From Bacteroidales bacterium (GTDB lineage Bacteria > Bacteroidota > Bacteroidia > Bacteroidales > P3), in NCBI GenBank assembly GCA_017522065.1, contig JAFXAD010000055.1:1072-65071 (forward strand): DNA of 64,000 bases, read 5' to 3'. The notes under the pieces were generated by a model. The model searched no databases and was not told where the DNA came from. It saw only the letters and a program-made list of their open reading frames with translations. The position numbers and the translations under genes are program-made. This document shows positions 5,759 through 51,989 of this stretch, in pieces (position 1 is the first letter of the stretch; each line of letters opens with the position of its first letter).

Positions 5759-6688
5759 ATGACACAGAACGAGACAGACATAATGTATATGCGCCGTTGC
5801 CTGCAGCTGGCACTGAATGGAATGGGACGGGTGCGCCCCAACCCAATGGTTGGTTGCGTCGTTGTGAAGGATGGCTCAATCCTGAGCGAAGGTTTTCATC
5901 AACATTATGGCGGCTGGCATGCCGAGCGCAACGCCATTTTGAATGCGGAGTGCGACCTGCGCGGAGCCACCCTTTATGTCAACCTTGAGCCTTGCTCGCA
6001 CTATGGGAAAACGCCTCCCTGCGCTGATCTCATCGTGGAGAAGGGTGTCAGCCGTGTGGTGTGCTGCAACGACGACCCGAACCCGCTTGTCGCGGGGCGC
6101 GGTTTTGACAAGCTCGAGGCTGCTGGCATAGAGGTGGTGCACCATGTGCTGGAAGGGGAGGGGAGACATCTTAACCGACGTTTCTTCACCTTCATGGAAA
6201 AGCAACGGCCATACATAATCCTCAAATGGGCCGAGAGTGCTGACGGCTACATGGCACCTGCAGCAAAAGGAAACTACTGGATAAGTAGCGACAGCCAGAA
6301 CCGGCTGAACCATCGCTGGCGCACAGAAGAGGCGGCGATACTGGTGGGGTCGCAGACCTATCTCGACGACCGTCCGCAGCTTACGGCTCGACAATTCTGT
6401 GGCCCGCAGCCTGCGCGGATTGTCCTCGACCGACGCGGACGGCTAACAGATGTGCCGGAAGATTGGCTGCACCTGCGCTGCGGTACGCTCACCGAGGTGG
6501 CACAGTCGCTCTTTGAGAGGAAAATCCAGTCGGTCATCGTGGAGGGTGGCAGGCAGATACTCGATGCCTTTATCGCTGAAGACATGTATGATGAAGTGCG
6601 AATCCTCCGTGGCTCGTGTCGAATGGAGTCGGGGCTCAAGGCTCCCGATGCGACGGGACTCAAAAATGTCACTATCTATACCGACTAA
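5759..6688 (+). CDS. ribD: bifunctional riboflavin biosynthesis protein RibD (pyrimidine deaminase/uracil reductase)
   Basis: Zinc-deaminase motifs HAERNAI and PCSHYGKTPPCA, followed by a reductase domain (YIILKWAESADGY...). Start chosen at MTQNETDIMYMRRCLQLA. Confidence 0.9.
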   Translation: MTQNETDIMYMRRCLQLALNGMGRVRPNPMVGCVVVKDGSILSEGFHQHYGGWHAERNAILNAECDLRGATLYVNLEPCSHYGKTPPCADLIVEKGVSRVVCCNDDPNPLVAGRGFDKLEAAGIEVVHHVLEGEGRHLNRRFFTFMEKQRPYIILKWAESADGYMAPAAKGNYWISSDSQNRLNHRWRTEEAAILVGSQTYLDDRPQLTARQFCGPQPARIVLDRRGRLTDVPEDWLHLRCGTLTEVAQSLFERKIQSVIVEGGRQILDAFIAEDMYDEVRILRGSCRMESGLKAPDATGLKNVTIYTD

Positions 6689-6704
6689 CAACTGATCTAT
6701 ACAA

Positions 6705-7307
6705 ATGTTCGACGATATATACCACACCATCAAGGCACCCTCCGAGGGTCTCTACAAGGAGAAAGGCAGCAAGTTCTTGGCTTTCGCCTTTCCGGTCCGC
6801 ACTGTCGAAGAGGTGAAGGCTCACCTCGACCAGCTGCGCAAAGACTACTTCGACGCGCGTCACCACTGCTATGCCTACATCCTCGGTCCCAACAAAGATG
6901 CTTTCCGAGCCAACGACGACGGCGAACCCAGCGGCACGGGCGGCAGACCCATCCACGGGCAACTGCTCAGCGCCGACCTTACGGACACGCTCATCGTCGT
7001 GGTGCGCTATTTCGGCGGCATACTGCTCGGTGCCAGTGGATTGGCCAATGCATACAAGACTGCAGCCCGCGACGCCATCCAGAACGCCACCATCATCGAA
7101 AAGACAATCGACATCCGCTACCGTCTGCATTTCGAATATGCCGCAATGAACGACGTGATGCGCATTGTCAAGGAATACGAGCTCTTACCTCGAAACCAGG
7201 ACTTCAATCTCGATTGCCGTCTCGATGTCGAGGTGCGTCAGTCGCTCAGTGTCCGTTTCTACGATGCTATCGCCAACCTGCGGACTGTCAGAATCGAAAC
7301 TTTGTGA
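6705..7307 (+). CDS. YigZ/IMPACT (UPF0029) family protein
   Basis: KGSKFLAFAFPV...ARHHCYAYILG...DDGEPSGTGGRPI...VVVRYFGGILLG motifs typical of the YigZ N-terminal domain. Confidence 0.8.
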   Translation: MFDDIYHTIKAPSEGLYKEKGSKFLAFAFPVRTVEEVKAHLDQLRKDYFDARHHCYAYILGPNKDAFRANDDGEPSGTGGRPIHGQLLSADLTDTLIVVVRYFGGILLGASGLANAYKTAARDAIQNATIIEKTIDIRYRLHFEYAAMNDVMRIVKEYELLPRNQDFNLDCRLDVEVRQSLSVRFYDAIANLRTVRIETL

Positions 7308-9382: not shown

Positions 9383-9868
9383 GTGACTCGCACAGAATAC
9401 AACAACAATGTCAAAACATGGTCCGGCAACGTGCTACGCTTTGCCGTGTGGAACTGTGGCGACAGGATGCGTGGCGAAGATGCAGTGCAAGAGGCCTTTG
9501 CAAAATTATGGGAGAATCGCGAGCAAGTTTCTGTCGAGAAAGGGCTTGGATACCTGTTGACCGTGGCGCGACGCTACCTGCTTGACTGTTTCCGTCACGA
9601 CGATGTCGTCTGTCGAGCTCATAAGGAAATGGCCGATACACAAGAGACGGCTTACGAAAGTCGCGATACAGGCTTGAGCGATGAGATGACGGCGGCACTT
9701 GTTCAGCTGCCAGAGATACAAAGGACTATAATGCAGCTGCGCGACGTGGAGGGATACAGCTACAAAGAGATAGCCGAACAACTCAAAATCAACGAAAACC
9801 AAGTGCAAGTCTACCTGTTCCGTGCTCGCACCACAATGAAAAAAATACTAATTAAAAAAGCCATATAA
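9383..9868 (+). CDS. ECF-type RNA polymerase sigma-70 family factor (paralogue of 3021-3506)
   Basis: 161 aa with a GTG start. It aligns end to end with the other sigma (MTRTEYNNNVK vs MTTKEYNDCIK; VQVYLFRARTTMKKIL vs VAVYLFRARKTMKKLL). Confidence 0.85.
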   Translation: MTRTEYNNNVKTWSGNVLRFAVWNCGDRMRGEDAVQEAFAKLWENREQVSVEKGLGYLLTVARRYLLDCFRHDDVVCRAHKEMADTQETAYESRDTGLSDEMTAALVQLPEIQRTIMQLRDVEGYSYKEIAEQLKINENQVQVYLFRARTTMKKILIKKAI

Positions 9869-9968
9869 AAACAAGTCAAGTTTACAATACAACTCTTTCT
9901 GAAGTTTGCTCCACTGCGGTCGCAGGCCTGCAGAGCAGGCAGAAAGTTGAGGTTAAAGTTAAAGAAAA

Positions 9969-10850
9969 ATGATAAACGAAGACAACATAGAACTCTATCT
10001 GTTCCGCTACAAGGAAGGTCTGCTTGACGAAGCCGAGACTGCCGAGGTGGAGAAGGCGCTGGCCTCGCGCCCCGACTGGCAGGAGCTAGCCGACCTCTAT
10101 GATCCCGAGCTGACCTTGCCGGCAGGTGCCACGATGCCCTACGCAGACTTCGAGTCGCTGCGCGATGGAGGCCCGAGAGCCGTCGAGAAGAAAACAATCC
10201 GTCTCGGCGAGGCAGTATACTTGCGCAGGATACCTATTTGGAAGACCATAGGCATAGCAGCATCACTGCTGGTCTTTGTGACATTCTTCGTCAAGTTTTT
10301 GGACAACATGCCCGCCGATGGGGGCGCAATAGTCGCGGAGCAAGGAACAGTGACGGTCGATTCAGTGACGCAACCGATACTCGATACCGACGTCGTGGAG
10401 TCATTTATGGAAACACGAGAGTCGGCCCCGACACGGACAGTTGACAAAACTGACGAGAATCTGTTGGCCGAAGTAGTTGAAGACAATTTTTTTGAAGAAC
10501 AAAATCCAGAAACCTATAGCGCCGAAACGGAACCCGAAGTCGAGATGACAAAAGCCGTGGATACAATAAAATATAAGATTGGCAATGGCACCAGTCGCGA
10601 ACTCAACGACCCGATGGACCAGGAGGTGCTCTATGCCGACAACATTATTGTCAGGAAAGCCCCCGACCCTTCAGAATCCGCGCAGCCCACCACTCGCCAG
10701 CAACTTCGCAGCATCGCCAAGCGCGCCACGTCGATCATTGCCGGCGCCTCGTCCAACCGCCAACAGCGTCGTCAGGCCTTTGGCGAATATATAGAAGACC
10801 AAATCGAAAACAACGAAATATTAAGTAACATAATAGCAACTATAGAATGA
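9969..10850 (+). CDS. anti-sigma factor (single-pass membrane protein)
   Basis: N-terminus ELYLFRYKEGLLDEAETAEVEKALASRPDWQELADLY parallels the 2058-2969 product. One TM helix (IGIAASLLVFVTFFV). ATGA overlap with the next gene. Confidence 0.7.
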   Translation: MINEDNIELYLFRYKEGLLDEAETAEVEKALASRPDWQELADLYDPELTLPAGATMPYADFESLRDGGPRAVEKKTIRLGEAVYLRRIPIWKTIGIAASLLVFVTFFVKFLDNMPADGGAIVAEQGTVTVDSVTQPILDTDVVESFMETRESAPTRTVDKTDENLLAEVVEDNFFEEQNPETYSAETEPEVEMTKAVDTIKYKIGNGTSRELNDPMDQEVLYADNIIVRKAPDPSESAQPTTRQQLRSIAKRATSIIAGASSNRQQRRQAFGEYIEDQIENNEILSNIIATIE

Positions 10851-12028
10851 AAACATTAGTTTCTTTTTTCAGCCTTGTGATTGCAGCCATATCGCTCTCA
10901 CTCAATGTGGCAGCACAAACCAAAAGTGTCCGCGAAAGCATCACTGCCGACAGCATCACATCTATCAAAGTATTAGGTAATTCACGTGTTGTTTGGGTCC
11001 ACGACACAGAGCCCTACATCCAGGTGTCGTGGTTCACCACCGACATCGAACAGCCTGAAAAATATGGTATCACCATCGAAGGTAACGAACTGACCTTCGA
11101 GGACCTCTTGGGCCGCTTCTACTATGAGCTGCACCTCGACAGCAGCACCAAGGTTCACGTCATCGTCGACGGCAACTCGCGCTTCGCCTGGCCTAACGGC
11201 AAAAAGACCGAGATTTCGAGCAGGATGGAGAACACCAGCATCAGTGGTGTGTTCAGCGAGCTGAAAGGCCTGGTCGACGAACTGGTGATCACCTACGACA
11301 GCGTGGCCAAAAGCGGCAACAGCAACAAGGCCGGCGAGGCCTTCGTCAACAGTCCCCGCAAGAAACGCAAATACACTTTCGGCGACCGCACCAACCTCGA
11401 CTTCCACTGGGCCTTCAACAACTGGGGCGACCAGCCCTACAACGGCCTCATGAAGATGGACGGCCCCTACAACCTGCGCACCAGCTTCAGCAGCTACCAG
11501 CTCAGCGAAAACTATGCTGTGATTATGACCGACCATTTCAAACTTAACATCGGCATCGGCTACGAGTCAGACGTATACAAGTTCACCGACAACTACGTGT
11601 CGATGGATGCCACAACAGGAGCCCTCGCCACTCAGAATCAGGCCGGTGTGGATGCCGTCAGCGGCATTACGGGTAGCAATCTCGGCGACTGGTCGTCGCG
11701 ATTCGTGACACGCTACGTAACCCTGCCCGTCGAGTTCGAATACCGCGACAAGAGCGCTCTAAGGTCGTGGCGTATCAAGCTGGGTGTCGTCCCCGGACTT
11801 TCGTTCAACAGCAGTCATACCGGCCTCAAGCACGAGTTGGAAAAACGTGGCCGCAACTATCAGGATGTGCAGGAGGGAGTCTCCAAGTTCGTAAACCCAT
11901 ACAAACTCGACGTGCGCTTCACCGTCAAGTGGAACTGGCTCGGCTTCTTCATCCAGCTGCCCACCATGCCTGTCTTTATCGATACCGACACCAAGGTTTA
12001 CCCCATCAAGCTCGGCTTCATGATCTGA
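10847..12028 (+). CDS. putative outer-membrane protein (N-terminal domain plus beta-barrel), ECF cassette member
   Basis: 393 aa with a signal peptide ...LNVAAQ and a C-terminal strand pattern ending KVYPIKLGFMI (compare KLYPFSAGVCFTF in the 693-2009 product). Confidence 0.6.
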   Translation: MKTLVSFFSLVIAAISLSLNVAAQTKSVRESITADSITSIKVLGNSRVVWVHDTEPYIQVSWFTTDIEQPEKYGITIEGNELTFEDLLGRFYYELHLDSSTKVHVIVDGNSRFAWPNGKKTEISSRMENTSISGVFSELKGLVDELVITYDSVAKSGNSNKAGEAFVNSPRKKRKYTFGDRTNLDFHWAFNNWGDQPYNGLMKMDGPYNLRTSFSSYQLSENYAVIMTDHFKLNIGIGYESDVYKFTDNYVSMDATTGALATQNQAGVDAVSGITGSNLGDWSSRFVTRYVTLPVEFEYRDKSALRSWRIKLGVVPGLSFNSSHTGLKHELEKRGRNYQDVQEGVSKFVNPYKLDVRFTVKWNWLGFFIQLPTMPVFIDTDTKVYPIKLGFMI

Positions 12029-12080: not shown

Positions 12081-12114
12081 ATGCGCCCGACCGTTCGGCC
12101 GGGCGCATTTTTTG
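12081..12114 (+). terminator. intrinsic terminator
   Basis: ATGCGCCCGACCG-TTCG-GCCGGGCGCAT hairpin followed by TTTTTT. Confidence 0.6.
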
Positions 12115-12213
12115 CATCCGCTCCCGAAGACAAAAAACAAAATTTTTTTGCACGATATGTAAAAAAAACGTTTTTTCCGTTACTAATATGTTTAGAACAA
12201 AAAAACACTGACT

Positions 12214-13041
12214 ATGGACCACGGAAGGAACATCTGCCGACAGCTGAAGCAGCTGCGGCGCGACATCGCCGACCAGAACGGCATCGAGCTGCACCAGGAG
12301 GAGTGCACCTACAAGGGCCACTGCGACGGCACCTGCCCCCATTGCGACGCCGAGTTGCAATACATCGAGCGCGAGCTGGCACGCCGCCAAAGCCTCGGCA
12401 AGGCCGCTGTCGTGGCCGGCACAGTGCTGACGATGGCATCGGTGCAGACGGCACAAGCCCAGGAACCCATCCTTATGGGCAAGCCGGCAATGCCGGTCGA
12501 AGAGCGCGCTGACCAAGGCACGCTGAAAGGAACCGTTACCGACCAAAAAACCGGCGAACCGCTGATTGGCTGCAATGTCGTGTTAAGGCAAAACGGGCAG
12601 ATTATCACGGGGGCAAGAACCGATTTCGACGGCATCTACACCATCAAGGGTGTAAAGGCGGGCACATATTCGGTGGAGTTTTCGTATATAGGCTACATCA
12701 AACTGATTGTGCCTGAATTTGAAGTCCGTGCGAAAGGCTTCACTATACTGAATCGGGGTTTATCGCGCAAAAAAAATGCCAACGACGAGGCGACTGAAGT
12801 CGAGCCCCCTTTGATGGGCATTGTGCCTGTGGAGCACATCAACATCGGTGAGCCCGACACAGGTCGTACTCCGACTGTGATTATCGAAACCAACAGCACT
12901 GGTGAGGCCACGGGCAAATACGCCATCGGCGGCGTCGAGACACAGCTGGACGGCACCCCGGCCAGCGAATCGGGCAATCCGTTGCCCAATGAGCGTCCGA
13001 AAATCGACGTGGTTAATCCGCTTGACCAAAAGGCACAATAG
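12214..13041 (+). CDS. Cys-rich N-terminal domain / single TM / CarboxypepD_reg-domain protein
   Basis: N-terminus CRQLKQLRRDIADQNGIELHQEECTYKGHCDGTCPHCDAE has 5 Cys. TM helix AAVVAGTVLTMASV. Then QGTLKGTVTDQKTGEPLIGCNVVL...SYIGY (carboxypeptidase-regulatory-like fold) and a Pro/Gly/Thr-rich tail. Confidence 0.7.
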   Translation: MDHGRNICRQLKQLRRDIADQNGIELHQEECTYKGHCDGTCPHCDAELQYIERELARRQSLGKAAVVAGTVLTMASVQTAQAQEPILMGKPAMPVEERADQGTLKGTVTDQKTGEPLIGCNVVLRQNGQIITGARTDFDGIYTIKGVKAGTYSVEFSYIGYIKLIVPEFEVRAKGFTILNRGLSRKKNANDEATEVEPPLMGIVPVEHINIGEPDTGRTPTVIIETNSTGEATGKYAIGGVETQLDGTPASESGNPLPNERPKIDVVNPLDQKAQ

Positions 13042-13044
13042 GTA

Positions 13045-13686
13045 ATGGATGCAGTCCCATTTATCGGCGTTTCGCGTCACCGTATCGGCGTCGACGGCAA
13101 CGGCGTCACTACGCTGGCGGCTTTCCACGGCTGTCCGCTGCGATGCCGCTACTGCTTGAATCCGGCCTGCACGGGACCGACCGACCGCCTGTTCCGCTAC
13201 ACGCCCGAAAGCCTTTACGAGAAGGTGCGCATCGATAATCTCTATTTTCTGGCCACCGGTGGTGGCATCTGTTTCGGCGGTGGCGAGCCGCTGCTGAGGA
13301 TTGATTTTCTGGAGCAGTTCCGCGCACTGTGCGGCACGGCGTGGCGCCTGACGGCCGAGACGTCGCTGGCCGTTCCGCGTGCGACGGTGGCAAGGGCGGC
13401 CGCAATATTCGACGATTTTATTGTCGACATAAAGGACTCGAACCCCGACATATACAAGCGCTACACCGGCCGCAGCAACCGCCAGTCGCTGGGCAACTTG
13501 CGATGGCTGCTGAAAAAGAAAGGCGCTGATAACATAATTGTGCGCGTGCCGCTTATACCGGAGTATAACAGCGACGCCGACCGCGACCGCACAGTCGCTC
13601 TCCTCAAGGATTGGGGCGTCACGCGCATCGACCGATTCGAATATATAGTCAAAGAAAAGAATGAGAACAGTAATACAGCGAGTTAG
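13045..13686 (+). CDS. radical SAM protein, small glycyl-radical-activase-like type
   Basis: VSRHRIGVDGNGVTTLAAFHGCPLRCRYCLNP is a CxxxCxxC cluster motif with an activase-like lead-in. GGGEPLL is a SAM-binding motif. Only 213 aa, and 3 nt after the previous gene. Confidence 0.8.
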   Translation: MDAVPFIGVSRHRIGVDGNGVTTLAAFHGCPLRCRYCLNPACTGPTDRLFRYTPESLYEKVRIDNLYFLATGGGICFGGGEPLLRIDFLEQFRALCGTAWRLTAETSLAVPRATVARAAAIFDDFIVDIKDSNPDIYKRYTGRSNRQSLGNLRWLLKKKGADNIIVRVPLIPEYNSDADRDRTVALLKDWGVTRIDRFEYIVKEKNENSNTAS

Positions 13687-14122
13687 GTCGGCTTCGGTCG
13701 ACATCGAAGGTAAGCGGCACAGCGAGATAGGTCACGGCCTGCTGGTGCTTGTAGGCATCGAGGACCGCGACACCGAACAGGACATCGACTACCTGTGCCA
13801 CAAGATTGCGCAGATGCGGATTTTCGACGACGAACAGGGCGTGATGAATCTCCCGGTAACTGCTGTCGAAGATTTCGGCATCCTCGTCGTCAGCCAGTTC
13901 ACCCTTATGGCAAGTACGCGCAAGGGGAACAGACCCAGCTATATACATGCTTCGCGGCCCGATTTCGCCGTTCCGATGTATGAAAAATTCTGCAGCCTGC
14001 TGTCGAATGTTGTCGGCAAACAGGTGCAGACTGGTGTCTTCGGCGCCGACATGAAGGTGGCACTCATCAACGATGGACCGGTAACTATCATTATGGACTC
14101 GCACTTGAAGGAGGATTTTTAA
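13661..14122 (+). CDS. dtd: D-aminoacyl-tRNA deacylase
   Basis: MRTVIQRV...GLLVLVGIE...SQFTL...KGNRPSY motifs. Overlaps the radical SAM gene by 26 nt. Confidence 0.9.
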   Translation: MRTVIQRVRSASVDIEGKRHSEIGHGLLVLVGIEDRDTEQDIDYLCHKIAQMRIFDDEQGVMNLPVTAVEDFGILVVSQFTLMASTRKGNRPSYIHASRPDFAVPMYEKFCSLLSNVVGKQVQTGVFGADMKVALINDGPVTIIMDSHLKEDF

Positions 14123-15084: not shown

Positions 15085-17160
15085 ATGAAAAAGTCCTTAT
15101 TCCTTGTTTTATGCCTAATCTGCATGATTTCGGGCAAGTCGTTCGCCGATGTTGGCGATACGTTATCTTATTGTGGCAATGCAGCGCTGTCGACACGAAT
15201 AGGTGTCAACAACACTACGTCGACAGTTTACTGGGGTATAATGCTTCCGGCGGCCCAGCTGTCGGGGCACGATTCGGTGCAGAGCGTACTTCTCTACGTA
15301 ACTCCTACGGATGCGGGAACCTATACGCTCTACCTTTATCAGGGAGGCACATCCTCACCCCAGACGCTTGTCTACACAAAGACCTATCAGATTAATCCTT
15401 CTGCTGCGGGCTGGCAGCATTGTGCGTTAGACAGTTCTGTTGTCATTCCATCCAATACGAACCTTTGGGTGGTTTTCGCCAATACGGATGTTCTCTATCC
15501 TGCTGCAGCCTGTGCGTATGTCAACAACGTGAACAGCAATTGGTTGTCACTCGACGGAACTTCGTGGACGCATGCCGACACGCAGGTGGGACTGCCACAG
15601 AGCTACAGTTGGCTTATAAAGTGCGTCACACATACTTCAGCAACAGCGGCCCCTGTCGTTGTCGCGCATGGTCCGACTATGGGTGTTACGGGCTCTCCGT
15701 TGACCTTTACGGCCGATGCAAGCAGCGGAGCCACCGTGAGTTGGCAACTCGCAGGGGGCACGCCGACAACAGCCTCGGGTATGTCGGTTACCGCCACTTG
15801 GAACAATCCGGGCACTTACAATGTAATAGCTACTGCCACCAATGCCAATGGCACATCGCGCGACACAATAGTGCTCAATGTGTTCGAATGTCAAGAGGTC
15901 GTGTCGTTCCCATACACTATGGGGTTCGAAAGCACCGATCCGCTTGCCTGCTGGACCATTGTGGACGCAGATGGTGACGGGTATGCGTGGGATGCTGCGG
16001 TTTTTTCGGGCGCCGCGGCAAACAATGGGTCTGGCTGTATCGCTTCGGCTTCTTATATAAACGGCCCTGGAGCTTTGACCCCTGATAACTGGCTGATAAG
16101 CCCTCAGATATACCTCCCTCAGGACAACGGATTCACTCTTTCGTGGTATGATGGGGCGGTCGACCAGAACTATTACGAAGAGCATTACGGAGTATACATT
16201 TCAACAACGGGCACAGCCACATCGGATTTCTCTCTGCTGCAAGAATACGATATCACAGGCACTGCATGGACGCAGAAGTCCATCGACCTCAGCAGCTATG
16301 CAGGACAGCATGTCTATATTGCGTTCCGCCACTTCGACATTACGGATATGTATTGGATGAAGATTGACGATATAACCATTACCATGCAGCAACCGAGCAC
16401 TTATTTGGTGTCGTTCGAGTGTGAGGGTAATTTTGCCGGCAAGGTTGACACGCTTGCTTCGGGCAACAATCCTTCGCTTTGTGGACAGCAGGTGTCGCTC
16501 AGTTCACAGCATACAACGCCGATATACATTACCTGCCAGAAATTCGAGTTCGACCTTGATGCCTTGTATGTCAATGGGGTAGACAGAAAGGGCGATGCGC
16601 AATTCATCCCTGGCGATGTGCAGAATGTTTATTTGTATAATTTCCAGCCAACTGAGCCTACAACGATTCGGGTACTATTTGTCGGACGTGAAATGACGGT
16701 GACTGTCATTGCCAACCCAACACAAGGAGGGTCGGTGACTGGCGGTGGAACGTATCACTATCTCGATACGGCAACTCTTGTGGCTACTGCGAACAGCGGT
16801 TACACATTTACAGGATGGAACGACGGCAACACCGACAATCCGCGACAGATTGTCGTTACGGCTAATACTACCTATACGGCTAATTTTGCTACATCTCAGT
16901 CGATTGATGAGGTGCTGGCTACATCGGTAAGGCTGACTCCTAATCCGGCATCGAGTTTTGTGGAACTTTCGCTTGAAGGCATCTCCGAGAGCGTGACGGT
17001 GTCGATAGTCGACTTGTGCGGCAGGACGGTAGTCTCGGTGACAGATGCTGACGGAGGGGGAAAAACAAGACTGGATGTGTCGTCGCTGCCAGCCGGCCCA
17101 TACTTTGTGAGGGTCAGCGGCATTGGAGTCAACAACGTTTATAGACTTTTGAAGAAGTAG
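15085..17160 (+). CDS. T9SS cargo protein: PKD-like, cleaved-adhesin/MAM-like and InlB-B-repeat-like modules plus a type-A CTD
   Basis: Signal peptide. DADGDGYAWD module. GGSVTGGGTYHYLDTATLVATANSGYTFTGWNDG (Listeria-Bacteroides repeat type). CTD LTPNPASSFVEL...GPYFVRVSG...VYRLLKK. Confidence 0.85.
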   Translation: MKKSLFLVLCLICMISGKSFADVGDTLSYCGNAALSTRIGVNNTTSTVYWGIMLPAAQLSGHDSVQSVLLYVTPTDAGTYTLYLYQGGTSSPQTLVYTKTYQINPSAAGWQHCALDSSVVIPSNTNLWVVFANTDVLYPAAACAYVNNVNSNWLSLDGTSWTHADTQVGLPQSYSWLIKCVTHTSATAAPVVVAHGPTMGVTGSPLTFTADASSGATVSWQLAGGTPTTASGMSVTATWNNPGTYNVIATATNANGTSRDTIVLNVFECQEVVSFPYTMGFESTDPLACWTIVDADGDGYAWDAAVFSGAAANNGSGCIASASYINGPGALTPDNWLISPQIYLPQDNGFTLSWYDGAVDQNYYEEHYGVYISTTGTATSDFSLLQEYDITGTAWTQKSIDLSSYAGQHVYIAFRHFDITDMYWMKIDDITITMQQPSTYLVSFECEGNFAGKVDTLASGNNPSLCGQQVSLSSQHTTPIYITCQKFEFDLDALYVNGVDRKGDAQFIPGDVQNVYLYNFQPTEPTTIRVLFVGREMTVTVIANPTQGGSVTGGGTYHYLDTATLVATANSGYTFTGWNDGNTDNPRQIVVTANTTYTANFATSQSIDEVLATSVRLTPNPASSFVELSLEGISESVTVSIVDLCGRTVVSVTDADGGGKTRLDVSSLPAGPYFVRVSGIGVNNVYRLLKK

Positions 17161-23202: not shown

Positions 23203-23679
23203 CTACTGTGTGACAGCCCAAAACTGTATCTGCAAAGGCTCGGCGGCGGTGCCTTGCTGGCCGCCGTTGACGAAGGGGAAGGTGGTGTCGGTGTTGAAGA
23301 TGTTGTGCAGCTTGTGGGAGTAATAGCGTAGGGCTATCTGTCCGTAGGGCTGCGAAGGGGCGTGGATGAAGAGGAAGAAGCGCCCGAGGTCGTCGCACTG
23401 GGCAACGCCTACACATTCGTCGCCCACAAAGGCGCCGAGTCGGTCGTCGACGTCGGTCGTCCAGATGTCGGAGGGTACTGGCGTATCGTCGGCCATCTGC
23501 AGGTTCACCTGGATCACGGCGGTCATACTGCTCGAATAATCGTAGTCGGAATCGGCCACCCAGGCAGGGTCGTCGATGTTGCCTTGTATGGAAAACGGTT
23601 TTTCGCTGACTTCTTCCTTGCCACAGGAGGCAAGGAAGAAGAGAGCAGCGAGTGCTATTGTCATTATTTTGTTTTTCAT
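23203..23679 (-). CDS. lipoprotein with a domain homologous to a C-terminal module of the upstream giant protein
   Basis: Lipobox LASCG. ATGA overlap with the giant gene stop. Segment DDRLGAFVGDECVGVAQ...FFLFIHAPSQPYGQIALRYYSHKLHNIF aligns with NDVVVALLGNDIVGRAN...LYLTIHGNEAFEGMPVHFRLWQASTGRIY in the giant protein. Confidence 0.7.
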   Translation of the reverse strand: MKNKIMTIALAALFFLASCGKEEVSEKPFSIQGNIDDPAWVADSDYDYSSSMTAVIQVNLQMADDTPVPSDIWTTDVDDRLGAFVGDECVGVAQCDDLGRFFLFIHAPSQPYGQIALRYYSHKLHNIFNTDTTFPFVNGGQQGTAAEPLQIQFWAVTQ

Positions 23680-26600
23680 TTCTTGATGAGTTTAATCGTG
23701 GTTATTGTTCCGTTATTGTTCACCGTAGCGAAGTATACGCCTGCGGCAAGGGTGGTTGTGGGTGTCCATCGTGTGCTGGTGATGCGGTCGATAAGGACGC
23801 CGCTGGCGTTATAGATAGTGATGGTGAAATCATCCGCCCAGCCGTCGGTCGAGGTGAAGTCTACGTGGTCGGTAAACGGGATTGGGTAGGCGGTGATAGT
23901 TGAAAGTTGAGAGTTGGAAGTCGAGAGTATTACGGGGTCGGTCAGCGTGCCGTAATGACGGTTGGGGACTGCGGAAACGGAAATCGGAGAGCGGAGAGCG
24001 GAAATCGGAGCTACGCTGGTCTGCGTTCCGTCCTGCTCAATAACAAAGGTGATTTCGCCAGCGTTGTCGGTTCCGAGGGTGAGGAAGAACAGTGTGTCGC
24101 CATCGACAACCTGCGGGGTGACGGAGCAGACGGGGGTGCCGTTGATGTAAGCCGTTAGCTGAGAGTTCTGAGCTGAGAGCTCTGGGCTGAGTGCTGCGAT
24201 GATTGTCATATTGGTGGCAGGTGAGTTGAAAGTTGAGAGTTGAGATTTGAAATCAGGCTCAGCGTTTTGCTTTCCGTTTTCCGCTTCCTTGTTGCCGTTG
24301 CGGAAGGTGAAGTTCACTGTGGACTCGGCGTTTCTGTAGAGCAGGTAGCCTTTGCCTGGGGTGAGGACCTTCAGCGAGCCTTCCCAGCGCTCGTTCTCCG
24401 AGAAGACGGCGAACTCGGTCTGCGATTTGATGATGTCGCCGACGGTGACGTTCTCGATATAGTCGGCCATAGCGTTAGTCAGGTTCAGCGTGTTGTTTAG
24501 CAGGTAGGGGAAGGCGTTCCAGCCGTGATGCAACTGGATGGTACGTTCGGCATCGGTGGCAAGGCGGCGTCCGGCCATCTGCGTATTGTTGTGGAAGTCG
24601 GCGGTGCGCATCAGGTACATCTGCCTGTAGTCCAGGCTGTAGAATGTGCCCGTCCACTGCTCGCCGTCCCATTCGGCAAACTGCTGTGTGGCGACGCTCT
24701 TCAGTTGGTCGCCCTGGCTCCACGGCGTAGAGCTGTAGAGGAGGTCGCCGACAGATGCGTTGCTGTCGGGTTCCAGATAGAACGATATCCAGTTCCAACC
24801 CTGCACGATGTCGAGGCTCTGCACCTCGTTGGCTGAAGTGGAGAGGAGAACTGGTGCCGCCGGCGGCAGGCCCACGGTGGCGTCGTTCTGGTAGCTTACG
24901 TCGGTCGAAGGCATCAGGCTGTAGATGCGTCCTGTCGATGCCTGCCACAGGCGGAAGTGGACGGGCATACCTTCAAACGCCTCGTTGCCGTGGATGGTGA
25001 GGTAGAGGTAGCTGGTGCCGGCTTCGGCGTTGAAGTCGACATTGGCACGTCCGACGATGTCGTTGCCCAGAAGTGCGACGACGACGTCGTTCGGGTCGCT
25101 GTCGTAGGTGCCGTCGACCATCACTTGTCCGCGCAGCGACATCTGGCGAGCGTAGCCGCGGGGGTTGTCGTCGTCCCACGGGCAGATGGCCTTGATTTCG
25201 ACCATGATTTTCAGTGGTTCGCTGAGGCCGTCTTCGTCGGTGAGGTAGATTATTTCAGAATAGATGCCGACGGGCAGGTTGTGGTCGATGGTGAAACGCA
25301 GGCCGATGGTCTCTTGCGGGTTGATGCTGCCGTAGGCTTGGCTGACGCTCATCCAGCTGGGCAAGCCCTCGATGGTGAACTGGTGTCGGCGTCCGCTGAT
25401 GTTCTGGATGTCGGCCGTCAGCTCAAAGTCGTCGACCATAGTCTCGTAGAAGACTGCCTGGAGGCGATTTTCGCTCCAGAGCAGCACGTTCTTGTTGACA
25501 TACACCTGCCACATAGTGGGGCTCACTGTGCGGTTGCCGTTGAGGTCTTCCACGTTACGCACGGTGATGAAGATGTTGTTCTTGTTGATTTCGCGGTCGA
25601 GCATATTGATGTTGATGAGCAGCTCGTCCTGGTTGAAGCTCCAGTCGAAGTTCATCTTGGTCAGCAGGCCGCGTTCGCGCACGGGTGCGATGTCCTCGTC
25701 GGTTGCAAACTGGGTGTTGAGGGTTGAGAAATCCGGTACGGTGACAAGGGGTTGTATTTTTTCAACTACCGTGCCATCGGTGGTGCGGAAAATCTTGCGG
25801 TTGTTGATAGAGAAATGTTCCTCCATGATGCCGTTGCTGTTTTCGACCTGCTCGCTGAAGGGCAGCCATGCCACCAGGCCCATTTCGTCGCCGTAGGGTG
25901 CGATGTTGTCGTAGGTCTCCACCAGATTTTTGGGCAGTGCCTGTTCGAAGAGCACCAGTTCGTCGATGGTGCCATTAAGCACATCGCAGTTCCAGGCACC
26001 TCCGAGCATCATGTCGCCGCTCAGACCGCTTAGTGTATCGGTGGCGAAGGTGTTCATCAGGTTGCCGTCGACGTAGATGGCGGCATTGTTCTGCGTGCGG
26101 TTGACGGTCAGCACGTAGTGGTGCCAAGCGCCATCGGCGAGGTTGCCGCTGGCCTGCTGCATCATGTTGCCATTGCGGAAACGGAGGCTGCCGTTCTCGA
26201 TGGCTATGAGTGTGCCGTCGAAACCGTCGACGCCCTGATAGCCGCGCTGGCGCCAGCCGGCGGAGAAGAGGGGCGCGTTGTTTGCCTCGGTGCGGAACCA
26301 GAACATAAGGGTGTAGTCCTGAATGGCCGAGCGCGAGAAGATGTCCTGGTCGAGGCTGACGGGCTGTGTGCCGTCGAGGTGCAGGGCATAGCCGGCGGGG
26401 GTGGTCCAGGCAAATCCTTGGAGGGTCAGCGTGGAGCCACTGGCAAGGTCGGCGCAGGTGTTGCCGCGGCCTTCGTTCATCGGGTAGTATGCCGCCAGTT
26501 TCTTCTCGTAGCCCGTAAGGGGCTTTTCATGGGTCTCAACAATCTCTGCCTGGTTCAAGGCCTTGATCCATACACGTGTCTCCAGCATATTGCCGCGGTA

Positions 26601-29600
26601 GCCGTGTCCGAAGACCAGCGGTGCGGATTGAGAGCGGAGGGATGAGAGCTGAGAGTTGATAAGGGAGTCTGTTAAGTTGGCCTGGTCGGTCAGCTCGCTG
26701 GTGCCGGCGAAGAAGCGCACCTGGTTTTCGTCGCGGTCGACGACGACCACCATACGGCGGAAGTCGGTGAGCGGCTCCATAGGTTTCGACTCCAGATGGT
26801 AGTCATTTATATCAAGGTACATACGGCAGCTGTCGCCGTCGGGGAGCAGGCCGAAGGAGATGTCGCTGCCCGAAGTGGAGTGTCCGAAGAGTTCCATCTT
26901 GCTTGCGGGGAGGGGCGAGTAGGGTTTGGCGATGAGGTCGATGCTGAACGACTTGTTGGCCAGCACGCGTGTCACTTCGCTCGAGGCACCGCACGTGGGT
27001 GTTCCGTCGAAGTAGAGCGAGGTGCCCGTCGTGATGCGGCCGCTCGAATTGGTGATGCCGAGCAGCTGGAAGTTGTTGTCCTCGTCGAGGTAGTTGCCGG
27101 CAATGGGCTCGTTGAAGCGCAGCTTGATGTTGTCGGCCACGCCGAGGATGCCGAAGGCCGGTTCGGGCTGGCCGAAGACGCGCGGCGGACGTGTGTCCTT
27201 GGTACCGGTGAGCACGGGCGACGACTTGGTGATGAAGCCCGAGCCGTGGCGGCAGAAGCTCACGGCGCGCAGGTCGTAGTGCTGCTCGATGGGGTCGCGC
27301 TCGCCGTAGAAGTGGATGTTGTCGATGCGGCCGCCGGTAATCATAGCCTTGGTGCCGCTGGCGGCGGCATAGATGGCGCTGTCGTAATAGTAGGAGCAGA
27401 TGGTCACCCACTCGTCGGCGCTCTGCGTCGACAGCTTGTACTGTAGCTCTATGTGGTCGAAGCCGCGGTAGTTGACGTCATAGTCGATGATGCTCACCGG
27501 CAGGTAGTAGCCCGTCGAGTCCTTCGGCGAAAGGGTGTTGAGCACCCAGTTTTCGTGCGGTTGCTCGATGTTGACGTCGCAGCTCACCGGCATAAAGTGT
27601 ACCGAGAACTGGGCCTGGCCTTTGTAATTGACGATGCAGGGCGACTCCAGTTCGATGATGAGGTCCTCGAAGTCGTAGCCGTCGCCGGCATAGACCTCCA
27701 TAGTCTTGGTGATGACCTGCGAGCCGGTGAGCAGTATTTCGCGGCCGTCGGTCAGCGGCATACCGTCGATATAGACGCGGGCGCCGTGGGGGTTGCTTTC
27801 GTCGTTCATCTTCAGCTTAAACCTGATAGGATAATCCACAGCAGTGCCCACGGTGGCCTCGAGCTCGTTGTAGAGTTGGATGGTGAAGATGGCGGGACGG
27901 TCTATCGGCACATTGCTGAGTTCGTGGACGTTGATGTCGACCTTGGGGTTCTCGAGCTTGAGCGTGCCTGCCGAGAGTGGCATCTTGGGGCGGTATAACT
28001 CGGTGCTGTCGGCCACCTCGCAGGGGCATCTGGTAGCGCCGCCGCGCAGGTAGTAGACCAGTGAGCCGTAGAGGTAGTCGTCGCCGTCATAGTCGCCTCC
28101 TTCGCTGACGAAGTCGCGCGTGTCGGCCGAGGCAGTGTTGAAGGCAAAGTCGCTGATGCTCTTCTTCAAACGATAGACGCTGACATCTATATTGCTGTAC
28201 ATATCGGGTGCCAGGGTGAAGCCTATCTCACGTGTGTGCAAGAGGCGCTCCTCGGGGTCGCGTCCGAACTGGAAGTCGATAATGGGTGTCAAAGAAAACT
28301 CAACAGCTGAACCGTGTGAATGGGCTCCAAAATGGTATGGACTGTATTTACCGTGACCATCTGTATTTTCTTCACGTAAATCATTCATAGCGTTTATTAT
28401 CATTTGTCCCACATGAAGACTAAATACATTTGCCAAACTTTTTATCAAGTTGCCTGTGCCCACATTGAAGCCGGGATAGTCACAATAGACGTGGTAAGCA
28501 TCGCTGTAGGAGTAAGTGTCGGTGTGCGAGAGTGTGAGAGGGCCGCTGACAGAATAGGTGGCCACCGAGTCGTGCTGGTTATGGTGAATGGCGGCAACCT
28601 TCTCGGCCTCGTTCTGCAGCAGCAGTTTGGCCCAATCGGCGATGCGACGGTTCAGGTCGCCCACCTCGTCGACATAATACTGCGACGAGTTTTCGGGCAG
28701 CATCTTTACATAGTCGCCACCCCAGTTTGTGTCGCCAGGTGCTACGCGGCTCCAATATACTTGTGTATTGCGTGCGTTGGCGGTAGCCTGTGCGGTGGCA
28801 CTGTCGCAGGTCAGCAGCAAGGCGTCGCGCTGGTGCATCAGCTGCGGGATAAGGTTGTCGCGGATATGGCTGTGGGTGTAGGCGAAGGTGGCAGCCAACG
28901 CGGGGCCGTTCTCCAGTTCGCTGCCGATGACCAGGTAGTAGCGCTGGCCGTTGGTGTCAACGCCTGTGCCCACGGTCTGCATAGTGCCGTTGGCACTGCT
29001 GCCGCCGAGGGCGGTGAATGTCACCGAGTCGAGAGGCTGCACAGCATCCACACGGCGAAAATAGACGTTCTGCACCGCGCCGATATAGACGTCAGCATCC
29101 TGACCGACAAAGTAGGGGTTGTCGCTGGTGCTGATGCGCTCGTTGGTGCGGAAGGTGTAGTTGCCTTCGTGCTTGTAGTAGTAGCTGCTGGTGATGGGCA
29201 GGTTAAAATCATAGGTTGTGCTGAAGTCCATAGACTGGCCGGTATACCAACCGGTATATATACCACCTACTCCACCAACTCCAACAACACCCATAATAAC
29301 ATTGCCATGTGTACCGAGGGTAAGACCGAAATCGAGTCCGAACTTGAACTGGAAGTCGTAGGTGTAGCTGTAGGAGTATTCCGCACCGCTCTCAATATAG
29401 GCGCTGGAGGTGCTTCCCGGCGGGTCGCGCAGCACGTCGAGCAGCTGGATGGTGCCGTGGGTAGAGGTGATGGCGTCGGCTGCGGTGGCGCGGTGACCGG
29501 TCACGTAGCCGCGCACAGCCTGCTGCACCACATACTCGCCCTCGCTCTCGACCGAGAGGTCGAGCACACGCTGCACGTTGGTATCGCTGCGCACAAAGGA

Positions 29601-48180: not shown

Positions 48181-51100
48181 ATGTTTAGAAAGGTACTATT
48201 AACAATCGGGTTGCTTCTGGTCACTCAGGCAGTGGCCTTGGCACAGGGTACTATTAAAGGTACCATTACCGATGAATCTACCGGAGAACCCTTGATCGGT
48301 GCCAATGTCATCATCAAACAAGACGGACAGCTGGTATCAGGTGGACGTACAGACTTGGATGGTAACTATACTATCAAAGCTGTACAGGTAGGAAAGTATG
48401 ACATTGAGGTCTCTTATATGGGATATCAAACTGTCAAATCAGAGATTAACGTTAAGGCAACAGGCTTTACAGTTTACAACGAGAAACTGGGAAAATCGGC
48501 TGGCGGAAAACAGCTTCAAACCGTTGTTGTCAAAACTAACAAGGTGCCTGTTATCGAAATCGGTGCTCCAGAGTCTGGTACTCGTCTCTCGTCTGAGGAT
48601 ATCGGACGTATGCCGTCCAACTCTGTCGACGGAATCGTCGCAGCTGTCGCCGGTGTCGGATACAGCGATGGCGGCTCAGGTACGGCTCGTGGTGAAGAGG
48701 GTATGGTGACACAGGTCGGTGGCGTCCGTACTCGTACCGGTGTCAATGTCCCGAAAGAGGCAATCGCCGAAATCCAGGTCGTCCTCGGTGGTACACCTGC
48801 AAATATCGGTGAGGCAATCGGTGGTACTCAGATTATTACCCTCAAACCGCCTTCAAACAAGTTCATGGGTCTTGTCAAATATGAGACCTATCTCGATTAC
48901 CGTCTCAACAACAGCCTTGTTGTTTGGTTGACAGGTCCTGTCGCAAAGGCTGCCCTTAAAGATGAGAGTGGCAATAAGACCGGTACACGTACCCTTATCG
49001 GTTTCCGTTTCACCGGAACGGGCTCTTATTCCAAATTCGGTTACTACCGTCCTAAGGATGGACGCTACCTTGTCGTGAACGACGAAAAGGTTATGGAAAT
49101 CGAGAATTCGCCCATCGATTACGATCCTGTTGAGGGTACAGTCAACTACACCGCTCAGCATCTCCGCACTTCGGACTTCGTCGAAATCAAACGTCCTAAC
49201 GCTCGCAACTATTATGCAAACAAGGATCGTCAAGCTGATTTCGGCAGCTACTCCATCGCTCTTCAGGGTGCTTTGGATTTCCGTTTCACCGAACTTACGT
49301 CTTTGGTGCTGACTGGCGAATATGACTATTCTTATGGCCCGAACACAAGTCTTGCTTATTTCCCGCTCAACTTGCACAATGCTGCCAATGGCGTAAACAA
49401 GACTCACAATATGTCGATCACCGCTGATTTCACCCAGCGCTTCAAAGACCCTGAGCCTGTTGCTGACGAAAGTAATCCAGACGCCAAGTCGGAACCCGTT
49501 GTATCGAAGGTTATGTACAACATCACTGCTATGTACAACCGCTATACAACCAAGTCCTACAATGAGCAGTTCGGCGACGACCTCTTCAAATATGGTCATA
49601 TCGCTACTTTCTACAGAACTCAGACTCCTTCGTATGAAATCAGAACCGATTATGAGTATCAAGGAACCACAACGTCGGCTTATGTGCAGAACAGCTGGAT
49701 CGAGAATTCGCAGTTTGTAGCTCCCTCTGAGTACAACCCCATTCTTTCCAACTATACCACTCAGCTTTACAACATTCCTTCGCTGGCTCCGTATCTGAAC
49801 AGATTTGACAATATCCGTTCATTCAACGGCTTGTACAACGGTCAGAGCCCCTCATACATCTATGGTCTCTCTTCCTATGCCAACGTTGGTGTTCAGAACG
49901 CTTCGTACGCAAAACAGGAAAACAACTATTATTATGTGTCGGCTAAGGCTGCTGCAACCGTCAAGGGTCATGACCTTGAAATCGGATTCCAGTATGACCA
50001 GTACACTGCTGCATACTATGGCCTCTCGGCTTACAGCCTCTGGACCATCATGCGTCAGAACGCCAACGCCCATATCCTTAACCTCGACTTCGAAAGTCCT
50101 ATAGAACGCACCGTCGGTGACGTCCTGTATGTTGACTACAACCGTAAGTATGTCGAGGGTACCGAGACTTTCTCGGCTGAGGCTATCCGTAATGCCGTTG
50201 GTCTTAGCATGACCGACTGGCTCGACGTTGACCGCTACTCTCCAGATGATTTCAACTCATTTGGCGGCATCAACCTCTTCTCGGCAAATGAACTTTTCAA
50301 CAACGGTAACCAGATCGTCAGCTACTACGGCTTCGACCACACTGGTGAAAAATACCGCAGAGGTACTTGGCAGCTCGAAGACTTCTTCGACCCCGTCGGA
50401 CGTGGCCATAAGAACTTCCAGTATCTGCCTTCGTTCTCGCCCATCTATGCTGCTGGATACATCCAAGACAAGTTCTTCTTCCAGGATCTTATCTTCAACG
50501 TCGGTGTTCGCGTCGACTACTTCGATGGTAACCAAATGGTTCTTAAAGACCCCTACCTGCTCTATGAGTCTTACACAATTGGCGACCTCAAGAACGGTAA
50601 AGCCCCCTATAACACTGACAGAGCAAACAACGCTTTCCCAGAGGCTGCAACCGACGATTGGGTAGTCTATGTTAACGCATACGATGCCACCATTCCTACC
50701 GTAAGAGGTTATCGTAACGATGGTGTATGGTATAATAAAGAAGGTGTCGAGGTCTCTGCACCGAGCCTTATCTCGGGTGAGTCTGGTAAACCGACTCCTT
50801 ATCGTACCGTCGACAGCCGTATCCCGAACAGCAGCGGCAACTACGTCAAATCGAGTGCTTTCGAAGACTACAAGCCTCAGATTGTTGTCATGCCCCGTAT
50901 CGCATTCTCTTTCCCTGTCAACGATATGTCTCAGTTCAAGGCTAACTACGACATTATTGCACGTCGTCCCTCTTCGGGATGGCAAGCCGACTATCTCAGT
51001 TATCTCTACATGAGCCAGGTTACCGGTGCAATCAGCAACCCCAACCTGAAACCGGAACGTGTTACCAACTACGAGCTCGGTTTCCAGCAGGCTCTTAACA

Positions 51101-51960: not shown

Positions 51961-51989
51961 TTTGTTATAATGTGAAAAATTATAAAGAA

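Follow-up and report, generated by a model that had tools for sequence, protein, structure and literature searches.

A minimal radical SAM enzyme and a Cys-rich N-terminal head domain: one copy of a widespread two-gene system on a Bacteroidales contig

Two co-directional genes at positions 12214 to 13686 lie within a 64,000-nt stretch of contig JAFXAD010000055.1 from a Bacteroidales bacterium, and it is this whole stretch that we call the window. The first gene encodes a 275-aa protein, here called the partner, and the second, after a gap of 3 nt, a minimal 213-aa radical SAM (rSAM) enzyme from the lineage of the glycyl-radical enzyme (GRE) activases. The pair turned out to belong to a two-gene system that is widespread and is covered by neither a Pfam nor an NCBIfam model. 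The core companion of the enzyme is a new domain, the Cys-rich first 62 residues of the partner (the head), rather than the CarboxypepD_reg domain on which the original prediction for this locus had focused; that domain proved to be one of several interchangeable exported parts, or cargos, and the enzyme tracks the head. The elements of the pair, in order along the DNA, are as follows.

12214..13041, + strand: partner gene, 275 aa, comprising head, predicted signal peptide, short motif, CarboxypepD_reg domain resembling an N-terminal extension (NTE), TonB-box-like segment and tail
12214..12399, + strand: head domain (residues 1-62), with helix 3-21, Cys loop 22-41 and helix 42-61+
12400..12459, + strand: signal-peptide-like segment KAAVVAGTVLTMASVQTAQA (residues 63-82), with K63, a 14-residue hydrophobic core and a cleavage region
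12469..12486, + strand: first copy of the short motif [LIVMF]-x-G-[DEK]-[VIPLM], here I-L-M-G-K-P (residues 86-91), just past the predicted cleavage site
12514..12762, + strand: CarboxypepD_reg, NTE-like beta-sandwich (residues ~101-183), a copy of residues 22-104 of the TonB-dependent barrel encoded at 48181
12805..12864, + strand: TonB-box-like segment PPLMGIVPVEHINIGEPDTG (residues 198-217), which aligns with NKVPVIEIGAPESG preceding the plug of the 48181 barrel
12865..13038, + strand: low-confidence tail (residues 218-275; pLDDT 41-72)
13045..13686, + strand: rSAM gene, 213 aa, minimal enzyme of the GRE-activase lineage without auxiliary-cluster Cys
13132..13155, + strand: CX3CX2C cluster motif (C30, C34 and C37), with the invariant D17-G18-x-G20 upstream and N39 after it

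The open reading frames (ORFs) and domain matches confirm what had been proposed for the enzyme, namely, a 213-aa activase-like protein with a cluster motif (GVDGNGVTTLAAFHGCPLRCRYCLNP) encoded 3 nt from its partner. Pfam Radical_SAM and Fer4_12 both match it, and its best match in the PDB is the pyruvate formate-lyase activating enzyme (PFL-AE) of E. coli (3c8f, E=8e-15). Without exception, 20 diverse orthologues keep D17-G18-N-G20-V-T, C30-x3-C34-x2-C37-L-N39 and G78-G79-G80-E81; the sole invariant Cys outside the CX3CX2C motif is C96, and C42 and C76 of the window enzyme are not conserved. In NCBIfam, TIGR02494 (GRE activase) comes first at 116.9 bits, below its cut-off of 174.35, followed by TIGR02493 (PFLA) at 82.4 bits against a cut-off of 231.75, and Bacteroides orthologues, at 143 to 148 bits on TIGR02494, stay below the cut-off too. 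No curated NCBIfam rSAM family reaches its cut-off for this enzyme. By these matches it belongs to the GRE-activase lineage, yet to no curated family.

GRE activases are the nearest relatives of the enzyme, and it shares with PFL-AE (3c8f/3cb8) the D-G-x-G loop, the CX3CX2C-x-N motif, the GGGE motif, a single cluster and the build of a small single-domain partial TIM barrel. It differs from the activases in its length (203 to 215 aa versus 245 to 310), in having Thr in place of the Arg of the DGxG(I/V)R loop, and in lacking a ferredoxin-like insert. Its alignment to TIGR02494 falls into two pieces that skip profile positions ~50 to 105, where the auxiliary-cluster insert lies, and the insert with its two auxiliary [4Fe-4S] clusters is not present. 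Neither a SPASM/twitch domain nor a RiPP recognition element (RRE; RiPP, ribosomally synthesized and posttranslationally modified peptide) was detected in the enzyme, SPASM families matching at E>=2.6e-5 and far under their cut-offs. As the original prediction had stated, no GRE gene is found within ~10 kb on either side of the pair; what accompanies the enzyme, unlike an activase, is an obligate Cys-rich-head neighbor without the RVxG[FWY] motif. The enzyme clade comprises 7,333 clusters (90% identity) at E<=1e-10, and the closest 120 are all 187 to 232 aa long; versions of 316 to 591 aa were discounted as over-extended ORFs. The 120 best homologues of the enzyme and the 150 best of the head included no natural fusion of the two. 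A search with PADLOC for an anti-phage, viperin-like rSAM system returned only pVip for the enzyme (E=0.0098, 13.4 bits) and nothing for the partner, and this assignment was rejected.

The head contains the five Cys residues originally described, spaced C8-x22-C31-x5-C37-x3-C41-x2-C44; the first spacing is x22 rather than the x25 given before, and the His counted with them is not conserved, nor is any other His of the partner N-terminus, among homologues. Homologue alignments show C8, C31, C37, C41, C44 and G39 to be invariant and G35, G62 and K63 nearly so, with the consensus M..GK.IC..LK.IR..IA.EN.I.L...ECTY.G.C.GTCP.CE.E..YLE.EL..R..LGKA..VAG. Searches with the partner returned full-length relatives along with proteins that share only its N-terminal ~30% and then continue into TonB_C or a short acidic sequence. 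A head profile gathered 2,214 clusters at 90% identity, and at 50% identity an exhaustive phmmer search with the head gave 2,619 representatives, of which 1,464 reached E<=1e-10; the head almost always occupies residues 1 to 69. No Pfam or NCBIfam model matches the head. AlphaFold2 (AF2) confidently folds it, taken alone, into a helix/Cys-loop/helix hairpin (pLDDT 80.5, pTM 0.65), a Foldseek search of that model against the PDB found nothing below E=5, and the best hit of a PDB sequence-profile search, a zinc-knuckle-like one at E=0.81, is not significant.

The Cys pattern of the head can be read as a ferredoxin motif without its second Cys (C31-x5-C37-x3-C41-P), as a CX3CX2C motif (C37-x3-C41-x2-C44), or as a zinc knuckle (C41-P-x-C44), and database hints toward Zn or Fe-S are nonsignificant in either direction. 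The head is probably a metal-binding domain. It should also be cytoplasmic, since R57, R58 and K63 lie on the head side of the hydrophobic segment, acidic sequence lies beyond it, and the domain is rich in Cys; a head in the cytoplasm would be within reach of the enzyme. This charge distribution supports the topology of the original prediction, which had placed the N-terminus on the cytoplasmic side and open to the enzyme.

The same prediction took the hydrophobic segment that follows to be a membrane anchor, and here the data point elsewhere. In the partner the segment reads R57-R58-Q-S-L-G-K63 / AAVVAGTVLTMASV / Q-T-A80-Q-A82 | Q83-E-P, and the predicted signal peptidase I (SPase I) site is A80-Q-A82|Q83. 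SPase I substrates of the Bacteroidetes follow a +1 Gln rule, which this site fits. G62, K63 and G69 are nearly invariant at the junction of head and segment, the pattern has the charged n-region, short h-region and small residues at -3/-1 of a Sec signal peptide, and the full-length AF2 model shows no confident helix at residues 62 to 89. Of 231 unique head proteins, 81 have AxA|Q at the end of the hydrophobic stretch and 117 have a lipobox there, with 33 unclear. Since 198 of the 231 end in one or the other, the periplasmic part would be released or lipidated, not anchored. A cleavable signal peptide is thus likelier than a permanent anchor, and we consider it the probable identity of the segment.

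Recurrence of the head and enzyme pair

Head and enzyme genes recur together in well over 100 independent loci, far above chance, and the neighborhood was surveyed from both sides. Starting from the head profile, an rSAM gene lies beside one to five head genes in 46 of 80 loci, and the other loci hold extra head paralogues, often in genomes with the enzyme elsewhere (RUG13410 and UBA3724). Starting from the enzyme profile, a head gene lies within 700 bp in 61 of 78 loci and within ~1 kb in 64; 11 of the remaining 14 enzyme loci are <1 kb from a contig end. By comparison, 38 control loci that were retrieved through TonB_C only and carry no head contained no rSAM gene at all. The proposal that the two genes would be conserved neighbors in other genomes is borne out by these counts.

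The arrangement of the pair varies. The enzyme gene may stand upstream or downstream of the head genes, or, in one case, on the opposite strand, and the flanking genes differ. No third gene is conserved, the head protein being the only conserved neighbor across >150 loci, and neither sigma factor nor ExbBD genes are conserved nearby. An early description of the architecture as TonB-like or anti-sigma-like thus survives in its first half, with TonB_C in half of the family, and fails in its second, with no conserved sigma factor. The pairing is kept where the head precedes a short acidic lipoprotein (P0081/L001) and where it precedes TonB_C (L004), and in all sampled Bacteroides species a head-lipobox-TonB_C gene begins within the enzyme gene. 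Because the link survives every change of cargo, we tie the enzyme to the head and not to CarboxypepD_reg.

The system spans Bacteroides, Muribaculaceae, Paludibacteraceae, Lentimicrobiaceae and metagenome-assembled genomes (MAGs) labeled as Clostridia. In six loci (L108, L112, L115, L132, L143 and L095), the pair occurs in MAGs labeled Eubacteriales, Clostridia or Oscillospiraceae, with a lipobox and non-TonB cargo. The neighbors in L132, VanY-like and SleB-like, have a Gram-positive look, a sign that the system may have spread between phyla in the rumen or gut. One member dispenses with export altogether: P0411 (L252, 5001-6409) is a 262-aa protein of two tandem heads with no hydrophobic segment, and a 205-aa rSAM enzyme is encoded 3 nt downstream. 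Its neighbors encode an AAA ATPase, an ADP-ribosylglycohydrolase and an NT5C nucleotidase, a context that resembles a mobile element.

Paralogues within a locus offer another view of what is conserved. Across 106 intralocus pairs, heads are 89% identical and mature parts 28%, compared with 63% for heads and 21% for the remainder in random between-locus pairs. Such figures fit a conserved recognition part that is tuned to a single partner in each genome. The largest family seen, at L204 (1484-7292), has six head paralogues around one rSAM gene; at L006, three tandem head proteins (including 6001-6756, P0075) have no rSAM gene within 6 kb.

With these observations in hand, a functional coupling of enzyme and head is very probable. 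We found no paper on the rSAM/head pairing or on TIGR04134 in such a context, and we know of no report of thousands of proteins whose Sec or lipoprotein signal peptides are preceded by a conserved folded domain, probably a metal-binding one. TIGR04134, the "radical SAM-associated putative lipoprotein," describes a Bacteroidales lipoprotein beside an rSAM gene, and the original prediction raised a TIGRFAM rSAM/lipoprotein system of this kind as a possible home for the pair. Hidden Markov model searches of partner and enzyme showed no such membership. The window partner has no TIGR04134 match at E<=1, nor do the Bacteroides or Muribaculaceae versions, and the homologue P0075 reaches only 12.3 bits (E=0.13) over residues 130 to 179, a CarboxypepD_reg-like region, against a cut-off of 39.8. 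The pair belongs to a different family, and TIGR04134 may itself be a CarboxypepD_reg-like lipoprotein family.

Exported parts of the head proteins

A Pfam census of 149 nonredundant head proteins of at least 100 aa found TonB_C in 76 (51%) and CarboxypepD_reg-type domains in 48 (32%), the remainder having no Pfam domain. The commonest form in metagenomes is a lipoprotein precursor of ~135 aa whose mature part consists of ~50 acidic, Pro- and D-S/T-rich residues. Past the predicted cleavage site, the motif [LIVMF]-x-G-[DEK]-[VIPLM] (consensus P-L-x-G-D-V-x-x-P) appears in 75 of 147 nonredundant mature N-termini, in 98 copies; 500 shuffles gave 10.0 +- 3.1 (maximum 22), which makes the enrichment ten-fold. 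The window partner carries a related motif, PPLMGIVP, further along its sequence. An outlier is P0468 (821 aa), in which an extended stretch rich in Q, A and P separates head and signal peptide from a C-terminus that is Toprim/primase-like; the gene call may be chimeric, or the protein may come from a conjugative element.

One TonB_C-bearing member connects the system to a well-studied organism. The head protein of L183, from a B. thetaiotaomicron MAG, has 269 aa with TonB_C at 190 to 268, and the enzyme gene lies immediately upstream. Both the length and the TonB_C position are identical to those of TonB2 (BT1056) in the table (Table 1) of eleven B. thetaiotaomicron TonB homologues (PMC10350073), and L183 is likely, by this agreement, the TonB2 orthologue. 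The same survey describes NTEs in both TonB-dependent transporters (TBDTs) and TonBs, considers that pairing between them is possibly mediated by the NTE, reports the NTE to be essential in BT1763, and treats the role of the NTE and the roles of most TonB paralogues as an open question (PMC10350073). It makes no mention of a Cys-rich N-terminus, a lipobox or an adjacent rSAM gene (PMC10350073), and we found no literature on BT1055-1057 beyond it. The head proteins resemble the Bacteroides TonB paralogues TonB2 (BT1056) and TonB7/TonB11, the latter two with CarboxypepD_reg, in their TonB_C or NTE-type domains (PMC10350073); unlike these paralogues, the window protein has no TonB_C (PF03544).

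In the window, the cargo is of the CarboxypepD_reg type. PF13620 matches partner residues 103 to 180 at 60.8 bits (cut-off 32.3), PF13715 matches at 48.5 bits (cut-off 32.2), which upholds the original assignment, and AF2 models the domain with a pLDDT of ~95. Foldseek with the full partner model found the SusC NTE domains 9hfj and 6ytc, each with a probability of 1.00, and in this search only the CarboxypepD_reg fold was matched. The part that it copies lies at the start of the gene for the only barrel in the window.

48244..48579, + strand: N-terminal periplasmic part (residues 22-133: NTE domain and TonB-box region) of the 1259-aa TonB-dependent barrel

The hand alignment that first drew attention to this resemblance, with 38 of 61 positions matching, is exact. 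By BLASTP, partner and barrel share 48% identity over 117 aa (E=2e-31), and the match continues past the domain into VPV..I.IG.P..G, just before the barrel plug. The segment just before the plug of a barrel is the expected place of the TonB box. The match to this segment is clearer in homologues, such as P0066 with TPIIEIGAPESGERIDADRIKHFPN and P0049 and P0375 with GEIQVKLPGTPAN, all three of which keep more of the pre-plug and plug sequence of the barrel. The tail of the window partner (residues 218 to 275) may be a remnant of plug sequence (..LDGTPAS..), an alignment that is marginal in that 10 of 300 shuffles reached the observed score. In a database-level homologue search, the barrels that best match the partner are of the 48181 type (P0090, P0091 and P0093, which share the signal peptide and N-terminus of this type; E~1e-16), whereas SusC/RagA-type receptors reach only 1e-6 to 1e-3. 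The mimicry of this barrel type that had been suggested is thus specific.

From these alignments, the cargo at this locus is best seen as a stand-alone duplicate of the N-terminal periplasmic region of a 48181-type barrel, with both its NTE and its TonB-box-like strand. It is plausible that the exported product serves as a decoy or modulator of the partner of the barrel, a TonB-family protein. The 1259-aa barrel itself contains CarboxypepD_reg, and the Pfam Plug model is not detected in it at E<=1e-3. A 1621-aa ORF with no Pfam match begins 11 nt after the barrel gene, and the two, spanning 48181 to 56837, may be an uncharacterized receptor/partner pair.

Possible roles of the head

We class the system with rSAM enzymes that have a protein client of their own; what is new in it is the domain and the architecture. 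The first component would be a minimal rSAM enzyme derived from GRE activases, with one [4Fe-4S]/SAM site and no auxiliary clusters. The second would be the client proteins, often several per genome, each composed of a ~62-residue head, a Sec-type signal peptide and an interchangeable exported part. Acting like a leader, the head would recruit the enzyme to the precursor in the cytoplasm, and the enzyme would carry out SAM-dependent hydrogen-atom abstraction on the head-bearing precursor before its export. Glycines that could serve as the site are G35 and G39 of the Cys loop, G62 and G69 at the junction, the last two also present in P0411 despite its missing signal segment, and the one inside the downstream L-x-G-D/E-V motif. 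A stable radical might result, or a crosslink with a nearby Cys, or some other product. Export would follow, signal peptidase would cut off the head, and at this locus a soluble periplasmic copy of the NTE and TonB-box-like strand would be released as a decoy or modulator of the barrel's partner.

The working analogy for such a sequence of events is the anaerobic sulfatase-maturating enzyme (anSME), an rSAM enzyme that acts on Sec substrates before export. Like anSME/AtsB, the enzyme studied here would be a cytoplasmic rSAM protein working on Sec-exported proteins ahead of translocation, with one enzyme serving many scattered client genes in Bacteroides. The differences are that anSME belongs to the SPASM enzymes, has two auxiliary clusters and reads a short motif located in the mature protein, that the signal peptides of its clients are ordinary ones with no head in front, and that the two enzymes are related in sequence only through the rSAM core. 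The rSAM maturases of sactipeptides and ranthipeptides offer a second comparison, with a conserved N-terminal recognition part, a variable remainder, several precursors per enzyme and removal of the leader on export. They differ in that the clients here are 120 to 450 aa long with folded domains, that the role of leader would fall to a Cys-rich folded domain together with a Sec signal peptide, which general signal peptidases would cut, and that the enzyme lacks the RRE and SPASM domain.

As for the chemistry, the hydrogen that PFL-AE removes is the pro-S one of Gly734, and the enzyme also takes a 7-mer peptide (PMC10267522). Because the enzyme keeps the hallmarks of GRE activases and PFL-AE acts on a backbone glycine, hydrogen abstraction from a glycine would be the most economical chemistry. 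Confidence differs from part to part. That the client is the covalent substrate of the enzyme has about an even chance, the full chain from leader-like head to decoy, taken exactly as stated, falls a little short of that, and glycine as the modified residue is doubtful. Equally tentative, and on the unlikely side, is the formulation in which the head is a new rSAM client domain whose radical or C-alpha modification sets up a SAM/redox checkpoint for the export of TonB_C and NTE proteins.

A number of points weigh against the client proposal. The head has no homologue of known function, and being a substrate is one of several roles it could have; contact between enzyme and client, or any modification, is something we infer from sequence. 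No head lies near the enzyme in three loci, L103, L114 (B. cellulosilyticus) and L173, which makes them true orphans. The enzyme falls under the cut-offs of every activase family, so that hydrogen abstraction from a protein glycine is an extrapolation, none of the candidate glycines resembles the GRE motif RVxG[FWY], and no more than about half of the members have the strict L-x-G-D/E-V motif. It is unusual for a signal peptide to be preceded by a folded domain of 60 residues, the prediction of cleavage comes purely from sequence patterns and finds no clear site in 33 of 231 members, and the decoy role of the cargo is reasoned throughout.

Those 33 members, among them the B. xylanisolvens protein of L105, which has no obvious cleavage site, are also a starting point for the best-surviving alternative. 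One possibility is that the hydrophobic segment is a permanent inner-membrane anchor and that head proteins are TonB- or anti-sigma-like transducers, in which the rSAM enzyme modifies or regulates a metal or Fe-S head and thereby couples cytoplasmic redox or SAM status to TonB-dependent transport. Canonical TonB is indeed anchored at its N-terminus, and TonB_C is present in half of the family, including L183, the likely B. thetaiotaomicron TonB2 orthologue. The Cys pattern C8...C37-x3-C41-x2-C44 also recalls that of the zinc-binding anti-sigma (ZAS) domains, C...HxxxCxxC. ZAS proteins share the layout, in which a Cys-rich helical domain at the cytoplasmic N-terminus leads through a hydrophobic segment to an extracytoplasmic part, and the heads have C...C-x3-C-x2-C where ZAS domains have C...H-x3-C-x2-C; heads differ in having two helices only, signal peptidase motifs, and no conserved cognate sigma factor. 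ZAS identity was rejected, as zf-HC2 gives no match at E<=1 and the extracytoplasmic function (ECF) sigma factor gene at 9383 to 9868 has its own anti-sigma-like neighbor, beyond a terminator-like site. The anchor is further opposed by the AxA|Q or lipobox found at the right distance in 86% of members, whose retention implies selection for cleavage, and by a hydrophobic core of ~14 residues, short for a stable helix. Sigma factor and ExbBD genes are not conserved nearby, the would-be periplasmic domain of many members is a mere 50-residue acidic tail, and neither the Clostridia-labeled members nor the signal-less P0411 fit a TonB role. Taken together, we consider such transducers unlikely.

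A lower probability goes to the reading that the head is an accessory of the enzyme, an Fe-S or Zn domain that replaces the ferredoxin-like insert in trans and supplies electrons or a membrane tether, while the substrate lies elsewhere. The skipped insert in the TIGR02494 alignment (positions ~50 to 105) would be explained by it, as would C31-x5-C37-x3-C41-P, a ferredoxin motif minus the second Cys. Head proteins also give weak matches to FwdF, [FeFe]-hydrogenase and GlcF at this ferredoxin-like motif, and the JGI names "ferredoxin" and "heterodisulfide reductase subunit C" point to the same Cys motif. These ferredoxin-like matches are nonsignificant (E>=0.018), as are the best PDB profile matches, which are zinc-knuckle-like instead. 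PFL-AE functions without such an insert, up to six head paralogues accompany one enzyme (L204), and there is no reason to fuse an electron donor ahead of the signal peptides of varied exported proteins only to discard it at export.

Just as improbable is a RiPP- or anSME-like maturation in which the head is a recognition leader and nothing more, and the enzyme modifies the Gly of P-L-x-G-D/E-V-x-x-P, or another residue, in the disordered region past the signal peptide to yield a modified periplasmic protein or lipoprotein. The conserved-leader, variable-cargo pattern and the anSME precedent speak for it, and so does the motif itself, which is enriched ten-fold, sits 5 to 15 residues past the cleavage site in many members, and is common to the Bacteroidales and Clostridia-labeled versions (for example, EPLMGDMP). 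Set against these are the presence of the strict motif in only about half of the members and the case of P0411, which has no exported part yet keeps its enzyme. The enzyme also lacks the SPASM/twitch domain or RRE typical of peptide-modifying rSAM enzymes, and conservation of the head far exceeds the need of a docking leader. Finally, although many loci come from related rumen Bacteroidales MAGs, adjacency as inherited synteny with no functional link is effectively refuted, its residual chance minimal, by the locus surveys in both directions and the TonB_C control, with gene order and orientation varied, flanks differing, the taxonomic span wide, and the enzyme tracking the head and not the cargo.

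Single-cluster relatives of PFL-AE have been thought of as dedicated GRE activases, and here the obligate partner is a 60-residue Cys-rich domain. An obligate head partner in place of a GRE therefore points this lineage either to a new class of substrate or to some new role. The system also links two domain types, NTE and TonB_C, to one dedicated enzyme, and the likely membership of B. thetaiotaomicron TonB2 makes the question of NTEs and TonB paralogues testable in a genetically tractable organism. If the head is indeed an rSAM client, anaerobic radical chemistry would gate TonB-dependent nutrient uptake in gut Bacteroidales, and the pair would represent a new protein posttranslational modification system and a first handle on the binding partner of SusC-type NTEs.

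Surroundings of the pair in the window

Two further features frame the pair.

12092..12213, + strand: terminator-like hairpin of the upstream unit (12092-12105) with a T-run, followed by an AT-rich leader
13661..14122, + strand: dtd, D-aminoacyl-tRNA deacylase (Pfam Tyr_Deacylase, E=5e-56), overlapping the rSAM gene by 26 nt

The region 12092..12213 is likely the start of a transcription unit composed of partner, rSAM and dtd. No terminator-like sites lie between these genes, the only two found being within coding sequence. Partner, rSAM and dtd are probably cotranscribed, because no comparable terminator-like site separates the genes and dtd overlaps the rSAM gene. As a component of the system, however, dtd was dropped, along with the D-amino acid or epimerase link it might have suggested: it is lineage specific, adjoining the pair in only 13 closely related loci.

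Within ~10 kb on either side, the neighbors include RibD, UPF0029, a fucosidase, an ECF sigma factor, Dtd, a short-chain dehydrogenase/reductase (SDR), a type IX secretion system (T9SS) adhesin, ZIP and FeoB. Upstream, the ECF sigma factor gene (9383-9868) is followed by a gene for an anti-sigma-like protein (9969-10850, no Pfam match), which a 393-aa ORF (10847-12028, no Pfam match) overlaps by 4 nt; the hairpin at 12092-12105 divides this sigma/anti-sigma-like cluster (9383-12028) from the pair. Downstream, a T9SS-type secreted protein (15085-17160) contains PKD, Cleaved_Adhesin and Por_Secre_tail domains, in keeping with a Bacteroidales origin. The G+C content of the pair (12214-13686) is 57.8%, compared with 51% for the whole window, and the nearest genomes, as judged by the pair, are the rumen MAGs RGIG2655 and UBA3724, at 98 to 99% identity. 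The window also holds a very long ORF of 3153 aa at 23676-33137 on the - strand.

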